Of a stretch of DNA of 64,000 bases, positions 2,425-51,616 are shown piece by piece. The DNA lies in the sequence record NC_005066.1; one strand, given 5' to 3'. Source of the DNA: Escherichia phage RB49. A program made the translations under genes and the position numbers. The notes under the pieces were generated by a model, which searched no databases, was not told where the DNA came from, and was given only the letters and a program-made list of their open reading frames with translations. Numbering within the stretch: the first letter of the stretch is position 1; every line of letters starts with the position of its first letter.

Positions 2425-2482
2425 GTTGTCCTCTCGTTGTTTTCGATGTGAGCATTATACATTAGCTAATCATGTTGTCAAC
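2425..2482 (-). promoter_or_regulatory. early promoter cassette (TTGACA-17-TATAAT)
   Basis: rc of 2454-2482 gives TTGACA, 17 nt spacer, TATAAT. Confidence 0.55.
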
Positions 2483-4927: not shown

Positions 4928-4985
4928 AATATAATCCTCTCGTTGTTAAGTGGGAGTATTATAGCATACTCCCTTTGCATGTCAA
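4928..4985 (-). promoter_or_regulatory. early promoter cassette with stem-loop over the -10
   Basis: rc: TTGACA-16-TATAAT; palindrome GGGAGTAT..ATACTCCC spans the -10. Confidence 0.55.
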
Positions 4986-7631: not shown

Positions 7632-7925
7632 TTAACCATTAATCTTGTTTTTGACTACAAAGGATCGGAACTCATCAAAACCACCGATATAATCACCATC
7701 ATAGAAAATCTGCGGCATGGTGGCAATAACTTCTACCCCTGCGCGATCCTGAATATCGGCAATGATAGAATCAATCTTTACCGGACGACCGTTTTCGTCC
7801 ACACCATCATTAACCGGAATGTAGATGTAAGGGATCTTACGCGCTTCACAAAGGCGCTTTGCATTCTGGCAATACTTACAGTTGTAACCTTCAAAACCAA
7901 AAATTTCTACCATGTTATACCTCAA
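7632..7925 (-). CDS. nrdC: glutaredoxin/thioredoxin (NrdC-like)
   Basis: 97 aa; CKYC redox motif; TMPQIFYDGDYIGGFDE glutaredoxin C-terminal signature. Confidence 0.85.
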   Translation of the reverse strand: MRYNMVEIFGFEGYNCKYCQNAKRLCEARKIPYIYIPVNDGVDENGRPVKIDSIIADIQDRAGVEVIATMPQIFYDGDYIGGFDEFRSFVVKNKING

Positions 7926-8734
7926 TCTACGTTAGTTACATAAACTTCTTGCGTATCAGAAGACTTACCACCTGAACGATCTAGGCAATAGGTCTTATTC
8001 AACAGGACGCAGTTTAAATCATTCCGCTTGATAAAGTCAAGAAGATGATCATTTACCTTTCCCTTATGATGCGTGACATTACTGATACCAAACTGAAAAC
8101 CACGCGCCATAATAGATTCTACCCACTGATAGAATTTAATCTCTTCCTCGTCACTCCAGAACTTATTATATTCCGCAGAAGTGACAAGGTACGGCGGGTC
8201 CAAATAAACGAAATCACCTGGCAAGATCTCGATCTCGTCATAACGACCAGACGTAAAACTGATTCGACCGTCTTTGTTTTCTTCCTTAAAATTCAGGACA
8301 CGCTCTACCGCGTTTTCGTTAAAAGTCCGGCGACCAAAATTAGCATTAAATTCGCCCTTCCTGTTATGGCGGTTAATGTTGCTAAAACTGTGCTGAATCA
8401 GAACAAACAGAGATAGCGGATCTGGATTCTCATTATACTTCTTACGGAATGCCATGTAAGCATCTTTATCATCACGAGACAAACCATTTTCGGTAATAAT
8501 ACGCTTGATCGTAGAAACCGGATCAGGACACTCGTCAATCGCTTTGTACGCGTCAATTAAGCGGTGATCATAGTCATTAGCCAGCACATCCCCTTCGACG
8601 TACAGAGACACGCTCAAGCCGCCACAGAAGGCATCAACAAAGCGGTTATAGTGCTTAGGGAAATACTTACTAACACCTGGCAATAACTTTTCCTTATTGC
8701 CAGTATAGGGAATTAAACCTAATGCTTTCTTCAT
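7922..8734 (-). CDS. dam: DNA adenine methyltransferase (Dam)
   Basis: 270 aa; motif I FCGGLSV and motif IV DPPY; recognisably similar to T4 Dam along its length. Confidence 0.9.
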   Translation of the reverse strand: MKKALGLIPYTGNKEKLLPGVSKYFPKHYNRFVDAFCGGLSVSLYVEGDVLANDYDHRLIDAYKAIDECPDPVSTIKRIITENGLSRDDKDAYMAFRKKYNENPDPLSLFVLIQHSFSNINRHNRKGEFNANFGRRTFNENAVERVLNFKEENKDGRISFTSGRYDEIEILPGDFVYLDPPYLVTSAEYNKFWSDEEEIKFYQWVESIMARGFQFGISNVTHHKGKVNDHLLDFIKRNDLNCVLLNKTYCLDRSGGKSSDTQEVYVTNVD

Positions 8735-10292: not shown

Positions 10293-10355
10293 AATATAAT
10301 CCTCACATCGTTCATTTGATGCGGTCATTATATGATAACCGCATTTTCATGTCAA
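10293..10355 (-). promoter_or_regulatory. early promoter cassette with stem-loop
   Basis: rc: TTGACA-17-TATAAT; palindrome ATGCGGT..ACCGCAT around the -10. Confidence 0.5.
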
Positions 10356-13265: not shown

Positions 13266-13322
13266 CTTTGATTCTCCTTAGTTGGTATGTGTGCATTATA
13301 GCACTATGATTTTCATTGTCAA
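13266..13322 (-). promoter_or_regulatory. early promoter cassette (TTGACA-16-TATAAT)
   Basis: rc of 13295-13322. Confidence 0.55.
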
Positions 13323-40700: not shown

Positions 40701-40804
40701 TAACATTCTCTATGTTCCGTGAACTTGTAGATAAACGGTTGAAGGATAATATAGGAAATCCACGCGATCCAAAGAATCCGACACAGAGGAAAATTAATGG
40801 CTAA
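37718..40804 (+). CDS. 7: baseplate wedge protein gp7
   Basis: 1028 aa (T4 gp7 is of similar size); synteny. Confidence 0.8.
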   Translation: MIKAPSVTSLTIEKLSANQAYITWDDVGENFFYFVELAETRTRDGEIIPVDELSWVNLGYTAEQNWFEDKNLFPEYYYKFRVAVAAEGFEQSKWVETEEFQTFKTNAYNFSMMREFNLANEFIKEKFTYDNREYVKFNTDLIQASLMKEDFVFSPEYANMTNISNYIVVDENFHEIQDHIEKVCTDINRTMLAEMNGVLYLFERFQPIVKVSNDKGQSWKAYKAFNDRVGNPVSRTCVYQSKTTTYVLGYDRIFYGRQASDTRWSADDVRFSDDTITFAKVGDENDLGFDVEVFGVFSRLTGDTTKYAEAMACSDDYLWVGAKDVIRRIRLKNTPVDTVQGSPTFGEKIFDPDVIRVTGNDKAVIQKMDVIDGKLLVFVTGEVKQRYQDPTKPENVVPSDDAGVYLIGSDGLSFQRVFGNTPQEREYIQHGFSNMSTNGDEVFISHYNHHFESILPDPETAAKYELGEAVKYSQEPTYLTDKKIHQTTFRASYDDLRIWELGPQAYYNEADYTWMRRNGVRVWITNDNRPLVVYPEVIYTQEVDTSGILDQNRVNREVYDKGTVTCYLNNVKFEGFKQYASGVMFHKNTGEIIGFYQFNYRVRDQVGVYWKPTNVAFVAELQNQVREVPWVPVHYDREQDPDLRPLLNKMTPDSFLLENENFRKFSEYYLQFLSDGSGTYYNKLKNLIKNKYPREQDAYEYLWSEMNKRNIYADKNKRDAVVRFFESRKSDFYSTKGVEASYKFLFKLLYNEDVEIEVESQAGLEYDIVVSSTNIDEDIVGRTIYTPTGRANVTYLEREYEGGRLRWRVTIHNLIGRFEEGQVIKSEKTAFEGMILVGVRGKELLSSSIDYINRSRSQYTMKIKSALPVSRYANDVMRFVHPVGFGFIGVTLLTMFINSGLSMKHTETIIQSLKNYKFDSGLPSVYPDRVADLDVDGNIKKDPLTGKALYLTSPTMGEEFPVPPEYDQENSELFHGLKASERRFAMSPLFDQSAVTFSMFRELVDKRLKDNIGNPRDPKNPTQRKING

Positions 40805-41792
40805 TGAAAATAGTGTGATCTATCGCTCAATCATTACTAGTAAATTCAGAACGGAAAAACTTCTGAATTTCTATAATTCTGTAGGCGATGAGGCAAATCA
40901 AATTACAATTTATGGAACGTTTGGACGTTCGGAGCCGTGGTCAGAAAACGAAAAAGAGGTGGGCTTTGCCCCACCTTATCCGACCGATTCAACGGCTGGT
41001 GTTGTTGATATGTGGACCCATATGATGGGGGCGGTTAAGATTAACAAATCACTTCTTGATGCGGTTATCCCTCGTAAAGATTGGGGTGATACCGGACAGG
41101 ATAACCCGCGCACATTCTTTATCAATGACATTGTTGTTGTCAACTCAGCACCATATAACCGAACTGATGTTGGTAGTGGCTGGATGGTGTATCGCGTAAC
41201 CGATGTTCCTGATCGCGGTTACTGCTCGATTTCAAGCATTGACGCTAAAGTAGAGTGTTTGAAGTTGGGCGGAAAGTGGACACCCACTCATGAATCAATT
41301 GCGCCACCTGTAGGAAAGGGCGATTCTATTGATATGGGTGATGGGTATCGTTGGGAATATCTGTACACAATTCCACCTGATGCGGCGATCAACCGTTGCA
41401 CCAATGAACATATTGTTGTTCCATTCCCTGATGAATTGAGACAAGATCCGGCGCGTTGGGGCTATGACAATGTGATCACCTGGTATAATGACTATAATCT
41501 GCTTTATCGGTTGAAAGTAGTAACTTTGCGTTTTCAGGCTTATATGGACTCTGCGCAATTCCCAACTACCGCGTTAGTGGGTAATACTGGTTTCCGTCAG
41601 TTAAGCATTATCCTTAACCCATTGGAAAAGAAAGCACGCCCTAGCGATCCAGACGTTAAAGCGGTTGAAGATAAGTACCGACCGCAAGACTTAGAGCCAC
41701 ACTCAGGCGAAATGATCTACATGGAAAACCGACAACCTATCGTTCGGTCATTAGATCAAACAGAACTTGTTTCTGTATTGTTTGAGTTCTAA
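40797..41792 (+). CDS. 8: baseplate wedge protein gp8
   Basis: 331 aa; synteny. Confidence 0.8.
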   Translation: MANENSVIYRSIITSKFRTEKLLNFYNSVGDEANQITIYGTFGRSEPWSENEKEVGFAPPYPTDSTAGVVDMWTHMMGAVKINKSLLDAVIPRKDWGDTGQDNPRTFFINDIVVVNSAPYNRTDVGSGWMVYRVTDVPDRGYCSISSIDAKVECLKLGGKWTPTHESIAPPVGKGDSIDMGDGYRWEYLYTIPPDAAINRCTNEHIVVPFPDELRQDPARWGYDNVITWYNDYNLLYRLKVVTLRFQAYMDSAQFPTTALVGNTGFRQLSIILNPLEKKARPSDPDVKAVEDKYRPQDLEPHSGEMIYMENRQPIVRSLDQTELVSVLFEF

Positions 41793-41804
41793 GTGTATGA
41801 TTTA

Positions 41805-41840
41805 AAAGCCAATTCGAGAGAGTTGGCTTTTTCTATTTTT
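41805..41840 (+). terminator. rho-independent terminator downstream of gene 8
   Basis: Stem aaagccaa/ttggcttt with T-rich tail. Confidence 0.55.
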
Positions 41841-41844
41841 GGTG

Positions 41845-41872
41845 TTGACAATCTTGCCTGATAAGGTATAAT
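41845..41872 (+). promoter_or_regulatory. sigma70-consensus promoter inside the late structural module
   Basis: TTGACA (41845-41850), 16 nt spacer, TATAAT (41867-41872). Confidence 0.6.
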
Positions 41873-41901
41873 GCTCACATCTAAACAACGGAGGATAAAT
41901 T

Positions 41902-42057
41902 ATGGCACGTCGTAAATTTACAGATAATTGTGAAGCAATTCAGGTATCCCCTTGCGGTTGGGATGTGATCGCGAACGGTGAAAAGATCGGCGAGATCATC
42001 GATCATACTCATTCATCACTAGCCGATTACACCGATGAACTATGGGAGCATGAATAA
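41902..42057 (+). CDS. small hypothetical protein (51 aa), island ORF A
   Basis: Hand-translated MARRKFTDNCEAIQVSPCGWDVIANGEKIGEIIDHTHSSLADYTDELWEHE; GGAGGA RBS 7 nt upstream. Confidence 0.45.
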   Translation: MARRKFTDNCEAIQVSPCGWDVIANGEKIGEIIDHTHSSLADYTDELWEHE

Positions 42058-42135
42058 CACTAAACGATTCAAGACTATCGACGAAGCTATCTATTTTGTG
42101 TATAATCCAACTTTCGGTATGTGGAGTAATAGAAA

Positions 42136-42465
42136 ATGGCACGCGTAAACATTAAACTACACTACACAATGGGTAAACCAAAACATCCAATGCATAAAGT
42201 GTTTTGGGGCTTGCATCTTCAAGAAAAATGGCATGATAACTATTGGTTTTGTGAGCATGATAAGAAGTGGCATTCTCAAGATGAAGTTAATGCGATGATG
42301 GAACAGGGTATAAAATTTAATTACTCTAATTATGACCATAGCATTACTTGTATTCGAAAATTGAAACGGTTTATTCGAAAGAATCCGCAATTTAAAAACT
42401 TTGTGTTCTTTATGTCTCATGTTTATTTGGGGCATAGCGTTACAGTAACAGCAAAGGTTAAATAA
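42136..42465 (+). CDS. hypothetical Trp/His-rich protein (109 aa), island ORF B
   Basis: Track ORF; GGAG RBS; possible weak promoter (TATAAT at 42101-42106). Confidence 0.55.
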   Translation: MARVNIKLHYTMGKPKHPMHKVFWGLHLQEKWHDNYWFCEHDKKWHSQDEVNAMMEQGIKFNYSNYDHSITCIRKLKRFIRKNPQFKNFVFFMSHVYLGHSVTVTAKVK

Positions 42466-43304
42466 TGGCACGACTTTCTAAACAAGAACAAAAATTACAC
42501 GATCGGGTGATGGAGTTGATTAATTCAGATCGCCAATTGACATATGAAGAAAAAGAATTTTGCTATAATAACTATCATGGCGATGGTCTAGGCGGTTCAG
42601 GTGCATTCTTTACCCCAGAAGGGCTTGCATGGGATTTTACCATCGATGCACATTGCACAGGAAAAGTATTAGATCTTTGTGCTGGGATCGGTCGCTTATC
42701 TTTTTGTATGTTACATCGTTGTAAGCCAGAAAAGATCGTATGCGTCGAACTCAATCCAGAATTTGCGCGGATTGGCAAGAGACTATTACCGGAGGCAGAA
42801 TGGATCACCAGCGATGTATTCGAATTTGAGTCAAACGAAAAATTCGATGTGGTGATCAGCAATCCACCTTTCGGGAAAATCAATACAACCGACACAAAGG
42901 ATGTATTTGAGTACACTGGCGGCGAATTTGAATTTAAGGTTATGACATTAGGACAGAAGTTTGCCGATGTAGGTTATTTTATTGTTCCTACTGGTTCCGC
43001 TGGTTTTGCCTATTCCGGCAGACCTTATTATGACGGGACCATGAAGTCTAATAAATATCTAAAATGGAGCAAACAAACTGGTTTGGTGACTTATGCCGGA
43101 TGTGGGATCGATACATCAATCTATCGCGATGAATGGCATAGTACCAGCGTTTTAACAGAAGTGGTTGAGGTTCGGTATTACGAGAAAGAAGCCGTAGAAG
43201 CGCCTAAATCACGTCCTAACGAACAAATAGAAGAAAGTAAGGAGATTACCTTACCGAAACAGGAAAGCGAGTCTGGGACGCTCTCAGATTTGTTTGACAT
43301 TTAA
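42465..43304 (+). CDS. SAM-dependent amino-methyltransferase (gamma-class order), putative N6-adenine MTase, island ORF C
   Basis: 279 aa; motif I VLDLCAGIGRLS then motif IV VISNPPFG about 60 aa later; acidic C-terminal tail. Confidence 0.65.
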   Translation: MARLSKQEQKLHDRVMELINSDRQLTYEEKEFCYNNYHGDGLGGSGAFFTPEGLAWDFTIDAHCTGKVLDLCAGIGRLSFCMLHRCKPEKIVCVELNPEFARIGKRLLPEAEWITSDVFEFESNEKFDVVISNPPFGKINTTDTKDVFEYTGGEFEFKVMTLGQKFADVGYFIVPTGSAGFAYSGRPYYDGTMKSNKYLKWSKQTGLVTYAGCGIDTSIYRDEWHSTSVLTEVVEVRYYEKEAVEAPKSRPNEQIEESKEITLPKQESESGTLSDLFDI

Positions 43305-43308
43305 TTAT

Positions 43309-43335
43309 AAGCCGTCCTTGTGGGCGGCTTTTTTG
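43309..43335 (+). terminator. rho-independent terminator at the end of the inserted island
   Basis: aagccg-loop-cggctt followed by TTTTTT. Confidence 0.55.
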
Positions 43336-43344
43336 TATGTATTT

Positions 43345-43352
43345 TATAAATA
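43345..43352 (+). promoter_or_regulatory. T4-type late promoter TATAAATA (gene 9)
   Basis: Exact TATAAATA 28 nt upstream of gene 9 ATG. Confidence 0.6.
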
Positions 43353-43379
43353 ATACATCATAACATGAGGAATTAAACA

Positions 43380-44234
43380 ATGGCACAAGTTCCAAAGAAA
43401 AGAATAGACACAGGTACTGTCGGCAATCCATCGACTGGCGATATCTTATATGATGGCGGTAATAAAATTAACGATAACTTTGATTCAATATATGACGCAT
43501 TTGCGGATCAGCGGTTTAAAGACGTAGACCACGGCGTGGGAAGAATGGTTATTCATGCAACCGGATACTATCAGAAACATCCACGTCAAAGCTACGCTGG
43601 TTCCGCTGTTGAGATTGGGAGTCTACACGATATCGATACAACTCAAGGCGCACTTATTGCTATTCTACCTAAAGCAAAGGTCGGCGAGGGTGTTGTATTC
43701 ATAAATAGTAACGGTAGCCTTTCAACGACTACACCGCTCAATATTCGAACTCAAGCAGGTGATTCTATTAGCGGTTATTCCGGTGATGCTACAATAACAC
43801 AACCATTTTCAAAAGTCACTGTTTGGTGTACTGCCGTTGAAGGTAGTCGCGTAACATGGCGATTGGGTATCGAAAGTATGTTTACCGATACAACAACGCC
43901 ATTAGATAAAACAGTTAACGTAACTGGAGTAGCAACAAACGTTGCTATTGCCGCAAAAACAGAATACGTTTCCATCAAATTATTAACTACCGCTAGCAAT
44001 ACATCCGGTTCAAAAATGCGTTCAAGTGAAACGCTACTGATGATTGATTCTAAAGCCGGAAAAGTTTATGCGACGGAATATGCAGTTTTGCAGAAGACAG
44101 AAGATGAACTATACACGGTTCGTTATTTCATCGGTTCCGGCGATAAAGTATATGCAGAGTATAAGGCTACTGGCGAAAATATTCGTTTAGCAGTTAAAGC
44201 CGTAGACACTATTAAAATCGGGGTTGCTACATGA
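43380..44234 (+). CDS. 9: baseplate wedge / long tail fiber socket protein gp9
   Basis: 284 aa; synteny and size. Confidence 0.8.
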   Translation: MAQVPKKRIDTGTVGNPSTGDILYDGGNKINDNFDSIYDAFADQRFKDVDHGVGRMVIHATGYYQKHPRQSYAGSAVEIGSLHDIDTTQGALIAILPKAKVGEGVVFINSNGSLSTTTPLNIRTQAGDSISGYSGDATITQPFSKVTVWCTAVEGSRVTWRLGIESMFTDTTTPLDKTVNVTGVATNVAIAAKTEYVSIKLLTTASNTSGSKMRSSETLLMIDSKAGKVYATEYAVLQKTEDELYTVRYFIGSGDKVYAEYKATGENIRLAVKAVDTIKIGVAT

Positions 44235-50875: not shown

Positions 50876-51616
50876 ATGTTTAACAACACTCTTTTTGCTC
50901 GCCTTGAATCGCAAAAGGATTATGAGAATACACGACAAACAGAGATTCTTAATCCTTATGTGAACTTTCACAAATATACAAATACTCAGACGTTAGCCGA
51001 CGTTATGGTCGCCGAAGCTATTCAGATGCGAGGTGTAGAATTATATTACATCCCTCGTGAATTTGTCAAACCAGATATGATCTTTGGTGAGGATGTTCAA
51101 AGCAAATTTACTAAAGCATGGAAATTTGCGGCTTATATTAACTCATTTGATGGGTATGAAGGAGCGGGTAATTTCTTCTCTAGTTTCGGGTATCAAGCTA
51201 ATGATGAACTAACTTTTACGGTTAACCCCAACCTATTCAAACATCAAGTAGATGATCAAGAGCCAAAATCAGGTGACTTAATTTATATTCCAATGAGTAA
51301 TGATTTATTTGAAATTAATTACGTTGAGCCATATCAGCCGTTTTTTCAGGCTGGCAAAAATGCCATGCGTAAAATTATTGCAGAGAAATTCGTGTATAGC
51401 GGTGAGGAATTGCGACCAGAATTACAACGCAATGAGGGAATTAATGTTGATGAGTTTGCGGATCTGGATCTTGCACCGATCACTAATCTGGACGGGTTAA
51501 CAGATATCAACTTAGATCAGTACAAAGAAGATAAGCAATTCAGAAGCGAAGGACAAGATTTTATTGATCCGTTTGATCCTATTAATGGCAAGGGTTCACC
51601 TTTCGCCGATTTTTGA
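50876..51616 (+). CDS. 14: neck protein gp14
   Basis: 246 aa; synteny. Confidence 0.8.

Follow-up and report, generated by a model that had tools for sequence, protein, structure and literature searches.

A genus-wide cassette between baseplate genes 8 and 9 of Krischvirus encodes a probable orphan DNA methyltransferase with a candidate clamp-binding tail

The genomes of the T4-like phages RB49 and Phi1 each contain about 50 promoter-early stem-loop (PeSL) cassettes, as described by Arbiol et al. 2010 (PMC2839356). A PeSL combines a terminator hairpin with a strong sigma70 promoter, is mostly located before an ORFan and was implicated in modular shuffling; a few PeSLs sit in the virion module beside genes of unknown function (PMC2839356). 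A second well-described system of these phages is the sliding clamp gp45 with its clients. The T4 proteins gp43, gp55 and gp33 each bind the clamp with a C-terminal epitope; these epitopes sit on variable linkers and can replace one another (PMC2988020), and the C-terminal peptide of the DNA polymerase gp43 is the experimentally established anchor to gp45 in T4 and RB69 (PMC2988020, PMC6212786). T4 ligase binds gp45 through an internal loop, EGLDFLFD (PMC6212786). In bacteria, binding to the beta clamp is mediated by the motif QL(S/D)LF, which is usually C-terminal, and a review of clamp partners from 2022 mentions only Dnmt1 with PCNA as a methyltransferase case (PMC9690074). Here we analyzed the segment between the baseplate genes 8 and 9 of Escherichia phage RB49 (genus Krischvirus, record NC_005066.1), which spans positions 41,793 to 43,379 of a stretch of 64,000 nt; this whole stretch is referred to as the window. 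The segment is a cassette of three open reading frames (ORFs), A, B and C, behind a sigma70 promoter. The locus, its genes and the PeSLs were already known, while the clamp-like tail of the methyltransferase encoded by ORF C is new. We found no literature on a clamp-bound methyltransferase of bacteria or phages, but coverage was incomplete and this is no proof of novelty.

The tail of ORF C is more informative than any other feature of the locus. Enterobacterial homologues end 6-11 residues past the conserved core, and the Krischvirus protein adds a linker of about 30 residues and then ends with ...SESGTLSDLFDI. The linker varies among close relatives, the end motif is fixed. The DNA polymerase gp43 of Phi1 ends with ...EKVASLTDLFDI (...ASLTDLFDI) and ORF C with ...GTLSDLFDI, so that the last 8 residues (TLSDLFDI versus SLTDLFDI) are identical at 6 of 8 positions and differ only by two swaps of S and T. 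Similar ends were sought in 635 ORFs (40 aa or longer) of the window and of 100 kb of Phi1. Among the 634 other ORFs gp43 was the best in-register match to the last 8 residues of ORF C, and the next best ORF reached 4/8. The pattern [ST]L..[LFIM][FY][DE].{0,4}$ was present in only three of the 635 ORFs, namely gp43, gp55 (...PSLDQFYEIEN in Krischvirus) and ORF C. A recent DNA copy of the 3' end of the polymerase gene was rejected as the origin of the tail: 22 of 30 nt are identical, there are synonymous differences and the downstream sequence is unrelated. Since the coding DNA differs at synonymous positions, the match is kept at the protein level.

With a short hydrophobic and acidic peptide at its extreme C-terminus, similar to the end of gp43 and carried by a variable flexible linker, ORF C has the features of the gp45 clients gp43, gp55 and gp33. 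It differs from these proteins and from the ligase with its internal loop in that the client would be a DNA methyltransferase, and so far a predicted one. No DNA methyltransferase is among the gp45 partners named in PMC2988020 and PMC6212786. The gp45 gene itself is located outside the window. The DNA ligase of Phi1 (L010:29134-30630, minus strand) contains the sequence GTLSWIFEEEE, which is similar to the ORF C tail and to the loop by which T4 ligase binds gp45.

Homologues of ORF C with 45-50% identity are present in RB43-like, Klebsiella, Cronobacter, Yersinia, Aeromonas, Sinorhizobium and jumbo phages, at other genomic positions. In RB43-like, Klebsiella and Yersinia phages the gene lies between those for the helicase gp41 and the primase gp61. 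No T-even genus (Tequatrovirus, Mosigvirus) was among the matches listed in the ORF C search; a search with gp9 finds 601 Escherichia phage records. For a comparison of the tails, full-length homologues were taken from 68 loci of bacterial genomes and 80 viral contigs. The enterobacterial copies are located at the ends of viral contigs of 20-40 kb, at one locus beside a tail-fibre J gene and an endolysin gene, and therefore appear to be prophage genes.

One group of these homologues belongs to temperate phages and prophages, among others of Pseudomonas, Rhizobiales, Burkholderiales and Rhodospirillales. Their linkers comprise 24 to about 100 residues and show great variation in length and sequence, but the motif at the end is retained, with endings such as QLSLF(DAA), QADLFGEAA, QLDLFAMAA, QLTLF and QLVLL. 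The motif Qxx[LIM]F occurred within the last 12 residues of 52 of the 141 homologues, compared to 20 of 3555 other ORFs of the same loci. When the homologues were clustered at 70% identity, 13 of 43 clusters had the motif and about 0.24 were expected (binomial p ~2e-19). Like bacterial beta-clamp binders, these temperate-phage and prophage relatives carry QLSLF, QADLF or QLDLF, often at or near the C-terminus. ORF C of the window does not contain Qxx(L/M/I)F, since the Gln is missing (TLSDLF); unlike the bacterial motif, the Krischvirus tail follows the version used at the phage clamp. In a neighbor-joining tree the Krischvirus clade was placed next to the tail-less enterobacterial prophages and was separate from both the RB43/KP15 clade and the beta-type lineages. 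From this position we conclude that tails were gained, lost or retargeted several times. An even chance is what we give to a broader view, by which phrog_3820, the family of ORF C, would consist of widespread phage DNA methyltransferases tethered to the sliding clamp by a swappable C-terminal peptide. This peptide would be a beta motif in temperate phages and retargeted to gp45 in T4-like phages, and the Krischvirus tail would have converged on the polymerase anchor.

Several observations weigh against a methyltransferase that is tethered to gp45. In RB43-like and KP15-like phages the ORF C homologues end with ..QNLFTFTIE or ..SDLFTFTIE and the polymerases of the same phages with ..SLNTLFGDDW or ..SLNDLFGDW; methyltransferase and polymerase tails have an [ND]-L-F core in common, which is only a loose match. 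We also had to reject the tail as a universal feature of the family, as none was found in enterobacterial prophages, Bacteroidota, phiM12, GAP32 and T4-like phages of Aeromonas. Because so many homologues lack it, tethering is not essential to the family. For residues 140-243 of ORF C, the presumed target-recognition part, the PDB search detected no solved relative, and the DNA substrate is therefore deduced from the catalytic half and the context. The single-sequence structure model of ORF C had a predicted local distance difference test (pLDDT) value of 35. Literature on methylomes of Krischvirus or RB43 was not found, with incomplete coverage. Finally, many of the beta-type tails end with ..AA and those of Rhizobiales contain ANDN, as possible protease tags would, and TLSDLF also resembles the motif for the host beta clamp, so that the partner could be the host clamp.

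The tails might instead be degradation or regulatory tags, for instance ssrA-like degrons for ClpXP/SspB, which keep the methyltransferase short-lived. The match to the polymerase would then be coincidental or reflect a shared protease signal. Many proteobacterial tails end with ..DAA, ..EAA or ..MAA, and in Rhizobiales ANDN stands 8-12 residues before the end; the ssrA tags of alpha-proteobacteria have the form ANDN...AA. However, what all lineages have in common is Qxx[LIM]F, and several tails stop at ...QLSLF, ...QLTLF or ...QADLFA without AA. The Krischvirus tail contains neither AA nor ANDN and matches the C-terminus of the polymerase, the established clamp anchor of T4 and RB69. As an explanation of the tails in place of clamp binding we consider a degron improbable. 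Clamp anchoring and degron function could coexist, and since the AA ends and ANDN recall ssrA tags, a degron is a live alternative or an added function in the beta-type lineages. The tails of Rhizobiales prophages and phages follow the scheme ...ANDN(x3-8)Q(A/L)(D/S)LFG(E/D)AA (loci L027, L028, L032, L035, L036, L039, L077, L130, L135 and L142-L156) and may combine a clamp anchor with a ClpXP degron.

If the ORF C tail bound the host beta clamp (DnaN) and not gp45, the enzyme would act on host DNA or compete with host replication proteins during takeover. The closeness of TLSDLF to QL(S/D)LF fits this idea, as do the clear beta-type motifs of most relatives in other phages and the enterobacterial prophages as nearest clade. 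It does not fit that the canonical Gln is missing, that the last 8 residues match the phage's own polymerase and that the pattern otherwise occurs only in the gp45 client gp55. In addition, the DNA of T4-like phages is loaded with the phage's own clamp (PMC2988020). We regard the host clamp as an unlikely target, to the same degree as the degron, and consider gp45 the preferred partner of the tail.

ORF C most probably encodes a S-adenosylmethionine (SAM)-dependent N6-adenine DNA methyltransferase. GAFFTP (motif X, residues 46-51), CAGIG (motif I, 72-76) and NPPF (motif IV, 133-136) are arranged in the order X-I-IV, which is that of the gamma class, and are invariant in 22 homologues. The assignment to a family was observed at the domain level: in Pfam ORF C reached 38.6 bits with MTS (cut-off 23) and 28.6 bits with Eco57I (PF07669, cut-off 25.3), while N6_Mtase (PF02384) remained with 16.8 bits below its cut-off of 20.4. 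The best matches in the defence library were DNA methyltransferases, namely PADLOC mad2 (4e-17) and several type II methyltransferase models. A profile search of the PDB connected residues 25-136 to EcoR124 HsdM, and M.TaqI was reached in a single-sequence search. The place of homologues among replication genes in other phages and the lack of T-even genera among the matches listed also count in favour of a DNA enzyme. Taken alone, DNA as the substrate of ORF C is likely.

The initial annotation had recognized motifs of an amino-methyltransferase in ORF C and counted it as a second methyltransferase besides Dam. Both statements held: VLDLCAGIGRLS is present at residues 68-79 and NPPF at 133-136, and ORF C is distinct from Dam, which is encoded at 7922-8734 on the minus strand, is 98% identical to Dam of Phi1 and has a DPPY motif. 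ORF C showed no Pfam match to the Dam (D12) family. Like T4 Dam, it would be a SAM-dependent amino-methyltransferase of a phage without a partner nuclease, and it coexists with Dam in this genome. Unlike T4 Dam it belongs to another family with the gamma-type order X-I-IV and NPPF in place of DPPY. A third methyltransferase, ORF189 of Phi1 (L010:22298-23014, minus strand; phrog_757, 238 aa, FPPC motif), is encoded outside the window in a hyperplastic region, and Krischvirus may therefore have up to three DNA methyltransferases.

In databases the ORF C gene repeatedly carries the label prmC or release factor glutamine methyltransferase (GenBank MN655998, MN850615, MN850574, KY683735, MT478991, MN709127). 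If ORF C were an enzyme of the PrmC/HemK or RsmC type that methylates protein or RNA, it would act on host translation factors or rRNA. In NCBIfam the top rows were indeed those of PrmC (E 1.7e-9), of RsmC and of the L3 glutamine methyltransferase. These enzymes also have the Pfam MTS domain, RsmC was among the best sequence matches in the PDB, and phages E26, kvi, kaaroe and ECD7 are annotated with prmC. But these matches are limited to the SAM-binding half and lie far below the curated cut-offs: the PrmC model TIGR03534 scored 37.5 bits (cut-off 199.1) over residues 64-137 only, and RsmC 29 (cut-off 295). GAFFTP upstream of motif I, Eco57I above its cut-off and the matches in the defence library all point to DNA enzymes. 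A clamp-binding tail and a location among replication genes would make no sense for an enzyme acting on translation factors. We therefore assume that the PrmC label is wrong, given 37.5 bits against a cut-off of 199, and consider a protein or RNA substrate very improbable. The assignment as a DNA methyltransferase would correct this recurring label.

By its sequence, the left border of the cassette is a PeSL. A consensus promoter, an adjoining stem-loop and a repeated motif are all found between the stop codon of gene 8 and the start of ORF A. The window contains six perfect TTGACA-N15-18-TATAAT sites (Table 1) and 0.16 were expected by chance. The sites at 2454 (-), 13295 (-) and 41845 (+) have a common layout of hairpin, T-run and promoter, and a near-identical 5' leader, GCTCACATC..AACAACG.GAGGA, follows those at 2454 (-) and 41845 (+). 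The locus thus resembles the PeSLs of RB49 and Phi1 in having a stop codon, a G+C-rich hairpin with T-run, a consensus sigma70 promoter, a Shine-Dalgarno sequence and an ORFan. It is unlike typical PeSLs since this copy lies in the virion (baseplate) module and not in a hyperplastic region, and since the right border is formed by a terminator and a late promoter and not by a second PeSL. The locus between genes 8 and 9 is not named in the text of Arbiol et al. 2010 (PMC2839356). Taken alone, a PeSL-driven early cassette is highly probable.

The hairpin of terminator 1 (41804-41831) is located 13 nt upstream of the -35 box and folds with -15.6 kcal/mol (z -4.74). It is predicted to act as a terminator and is also annotated as such in phage GEC-3S. 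The hairpin of terminator 2 (43309-43330) showed similar values of -15.9 kcal/mol and z -4.63. Starts and stops of the three ORFs overlap, and the start of ORF C overlaps the stop of ORF B (TAATG). The late promoter sequence TATAAATA upstream of gene 9 had no second match between 32551 and 54803 and none inside the cassette. Over the whole window 9 matches were found and 6 expected, so there is no enrichment and the sequence is informative only by its position before gene 9. The initial annotation had placed a terminator after gene 8, a sigma70 promoter of the cassette's own behind it and a terminator with a late promoter before gene 9, and had suggested early expression that is independent of the surrounding late genes. 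A hairpin with T-run, a promoter with 12/12 consensus positions and both elements before gene 9 are present at these sites. Since the cassette is bounded by terminators, has its own consensus sigma70 promoter and contains no internal late promoter, early and independent expression is likely.

Table 1. Features of the gene 8-9 segment and its flanks (positions in the window).
Feature	Position	Strand	Basis
Gene 8, baseplate wedge subunit, late gene, left flank	40797-41792	+	Pfam PF09215 Phage-Gp8, E 9.9e-144; phrog_977
Terminator 1 (intrinsic, predicted), stem-loop half of PeSL	41804-41841	+	12-bp stem, 4-nt loop, then T-run; terminator scan
Consensus sigma70 early promoter (predicted), TTGACA-16-TATAAT, promoter half of PeSL	41845-41872	+	12/12 match
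Shine-Dalgarno sequence GGAGGA of ORF A	41890-41895	+	Direct sequence reading
ORF A front part, 51 aa, truncated copy of 85-aa ORFan (phrog_16603)	41902-42057	+	Profile positions 1-49
ORF A' rear part, 32 aa from ATG 42050, other frame	42050-42148	+	phrog_16603 positions 53-85, E 8e-18
ORF B, 109-aa Trp/His-rich ORFan (phrog_12630)	42136-42465	+	phrog_12630, E 1e-68
ORF C, 279-aa probable orphan amino-methyltransferase (phrog_3820)	42465-43304	+	phrog_3820, E 7e-118
Motif X of ORF C, GAFFTP, residues 46-51	42600-42617	+	Invariant in 22 homologues
Motif I of ORF C, VLDLCAGIGRLS, residues 68-79, SAM-binding loop	42666-42701	+	L71-G76 invariant; aligned with PDB methyltransferases
Motif IV of ORF C, NPPF, residues 133-136, catalytic loop	42861-42872	+	Invariant in 22 homologues
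Glu/Lys/Ser/Pro-rich hydrophilic linker of ORF C, residues ~241-271	43185-43277	+	Alignment; missing from enterobacterial prophage homologues
C-terminal peptide TLSDLFDI of ORF C, residues 272-279, predicted gp45 sliding-clamp-binding motif	43278-43301	+	6/8 match to Phi1 gp43 end
Terminator 2 (intrinsic, predicted), cassette end	43309-43338	+	Scan; annotated in GEC-3S
T4-type late promoter TATAAATA for gene 9	43345-43352	+	Exact match, 28 nt upstream of gene 9 ATG
Gene 9, baseplate wedge / tail-fibre connector, late gene, right flank	43380-44234	+	Pfam PF07880 T4_gp9_10_N, E 1.4e-40; phrog_967
Perfect sigma70 sites	2454-2481 (-), 4958-4985 (-), 10327-10355 (-), 13295-13322 (-), 41845-41872 (+), 51040-51069 (-)		

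The gene 7-10 region including the gene 8-9 segment matched 64 phage records, which all belong to Krischvirus (RB49, Phi1, JSE, GEC-3S, Sf20 and others), and 56 of the 64 aligned over at least 80% of the 3.4-kb query. The best 40 matches aligned end to end with 95-98.5% identity, the highest value being that of Sf20 (98.5%). All of the 56 full-length Krischvirus records carry the cassette at the same position. In three other T4-like genera genes 8 and 9 are adjacent, with gaps of 63 bp in Tequatrovirus RB33, 10 bp in Pseudotevenvirus RB16 and 9 bp in Tulanevirus Aes012. Because of this adjacency the segment is considered an insertion relative to other T4-like genera, as had been proposed in the initial annotation. 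The term accessory island used there does not apply, since the cassette is not variable among the covering records. Late-expressed core genes at this position in all related phages had been named as an observation that would speak against such an island; the genes are uniformly present in the relatives, but they are probably not late genes. The cassette has its own promoter and terminator, is set between genes of another transcription class and is missing from the junction in RB33, RB16 and Aes012, all features of a moron or autonomous expression cassette, and yet it is fixed throughout the genus. GEC-3S is already annotated with the terminator, the promoter, the three genes and the second terminator, and in Phi1 the genes are named ORF140 (A), ORF142 (B) and ORF143 (C). 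Anatomy and conservation of the cassette are direct observations, its early timing we infer.

While gp9 of the window is 100% identical to that of Krischvirus RB49 (OZ035808), the 3.4-kb query from gene 8 to gene 9, which includes the cassette, reaches only 96.9% identity with this record and has its closest matches in Sf20 and GEC-3S. The gene 8-9 region looks mosaic among Krischvirus lineages.

We propose that a small early operon with a PeSL on its left was inserted into the late baseplate operon of a Krischvirus ancestor and has been kept genus-wide. Terminator 1 would stop late transcripts coming from gene 8, and host polymerase would start at the consensus sigma70 promoter and transcribe ORFs A, B and C straight after infection. 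Terminator 2 would end the early transcript, and gene 9 would restart from its own late promoter. The ORF C enzyme would accumulate before replication and bind with its tail to gp45 clamps present on phage DNA that is being replicated or carries nicks, by which the enzyme would be concentrated on new DNA. New phage DNA would be methylated on adenine as it is made, and this could protect progeny genomes with unmodified cytosine from host restriction or mark them as self. Docking on gp45 is proposed because TLSDLFDI is nearly the same as the C-terminal peptide of gp43 that is expected to hold gp45. A somewhat better than even chance is given to this whole chain, an early, clamp-tethered orphan DNA methyltransferase, tethering included.

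A protective role of methylation is proposed because Krischvirus has no known pathway for modified cytosine. For Krischvirus and the RB43 group no pathways for non-canonical bases are known (PMC8056088). The Krischvirus phages SAP and TB34 are 99.96% identical and are reported to differ completely in cytosine modification without known pathway genes (PMC13390438). ORF C is unlikely to explain this difference, since both phages carry the full gene 8-to-9 region and show equal identity over it. What DNA chemistry the genus has is not settled. An anti-restriction role of the cassette is plausible.

As first described, the locus is ordinary, a conserved and annotated PeSL-driven cassette with an orphan methyltransferase. 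If the tail docks on the clamp, DNA synthesis and methylation would be directly linked, and a DNA-modifying enzyme would join the short list of gp45 partners (tool-belt). This could explain how a phage that makes hundreds of genomes with unmodified cytosine in minutes outpaces the restriction enzymes of the host, and how phages that replicate fast with ordinary cytosine maintain methylation of their DNA. ORF C would then be the counterpart in a prokaryotic virus of Dnmt1 with PCNA, a DNA methyltransferase with a clamp-binding motif that lets methylation follow replication (PMC9690074). The likeness is functional and not due to homology: Dnmt1 is a C5-cytosine maintenance enzyme with its PCNA-interacting protein (PIP) box near the N-terminus, whereas ORF C is a small amino-methyltransferase of a virus, has its motif at the C-terminus and shows no sign of a preference for hemimethylated DNA. 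The lineage-matched tails of the family (beta-type, gp45-type or none) would represent a natural experiment on the rewiring of a short linear motif between replisomes.

ORFs A and B had no match in Pfam, NCBIfam or PADLOC. The positions of the three ORFs in the initial annotation were correct, but the 51-aa ORF is only the front of an 85-aa gene. As revealed by alignment with GEC-3S and Phi1, ORF A is split by an 11-bp deletion at 42048/42049 (GGTATCAACTT in relatives), and the ATG of ORF A' overlaps the new stop codon created by the deletion. None of 57 relatives has this deletion, which may be a genuine mutation or may stem from faulty assembly. ORF B is represented by only 5 clusters among 5.8 billion proteins. 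Outside Krischvirus, ORFs A and B were found only in rV5-like Vequintavirus, with about 68% amino acid identity. In Vequintavirus FV3 both are adjacent, FFH2 has ORF B alone, and in neither phage is a methyltransferase next to them. As far as these comparisons go, the operon is a mosaic in which the ORFan pair A/B has been exchanged with rV5-like coliphages.

The three genes could form a single anti-defence module, with the products of ORFs A and B as specificity or regulatory partners of the methyltransferase. They have one promoter and one terminator and overlapping start and stop codons, and in Krischvirus they always occur together. On the other side, the methyltransferase homologues of CfP1, Roth23 and GAP32 have upstream neighbours unlike ORFs A and B, the pair in FV3 and ORF B of FFH2 occur without a methyltransferase, ORF A is disrupted in the phage studied here, and the prophage homologues of the methyltransferase stand alone at prophage ends. 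Upstream neighbours unlike ORFs A and B were also seen in RB43-like and Klebsiella phages, and a direct comparison with the neighbours in CfP1 and GAP32 detected no similarity, by which ORFs A and B were rejected as conserved neighbours of the methyltransferase. We consider a joint module very unlikely. The two partners of the methyltransferase assumed in the initial annotation are thus not supported, because homologues elsewhere have unrelated upstream neighbours and the A/B pair occurs without the enzyme. The common start MAR- of the three proteins, pointed out in the initial annotation, does not link them: bacterial homologues of the methyltransferase also start with MAR, MAK or MGK, and the rV5-like ORF B starts with MAH.

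ORF B exists in two alleles in Krischvirus. In 18 records it is at least 95% identical to that of the window, and the Phi1/JSE type shows about 73% identity (compared loci: window 42136-42465, L002:2855-3187 and L006:3746-4075). The divergence is confined to the N-terminal 70 residues, of which 43 are identical, compared to 38 of 39 in the rest of the protein. Over these 70 residues the allele of the window is closer to the rV5-like copy (50/70). This pattern suggests that phage families have recombined with each other. In RB43-like and Klebsiella T4-like phages, too, two small overlapping ORFs (about 76 and 130 aa) precede the methyltransferase gene and follow a terminator (L003:2446-3065, L004:2440-3065). 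The layout is the same as in the cassette described here, and the encoded proteins are unrelated to those of ORFs A and B.

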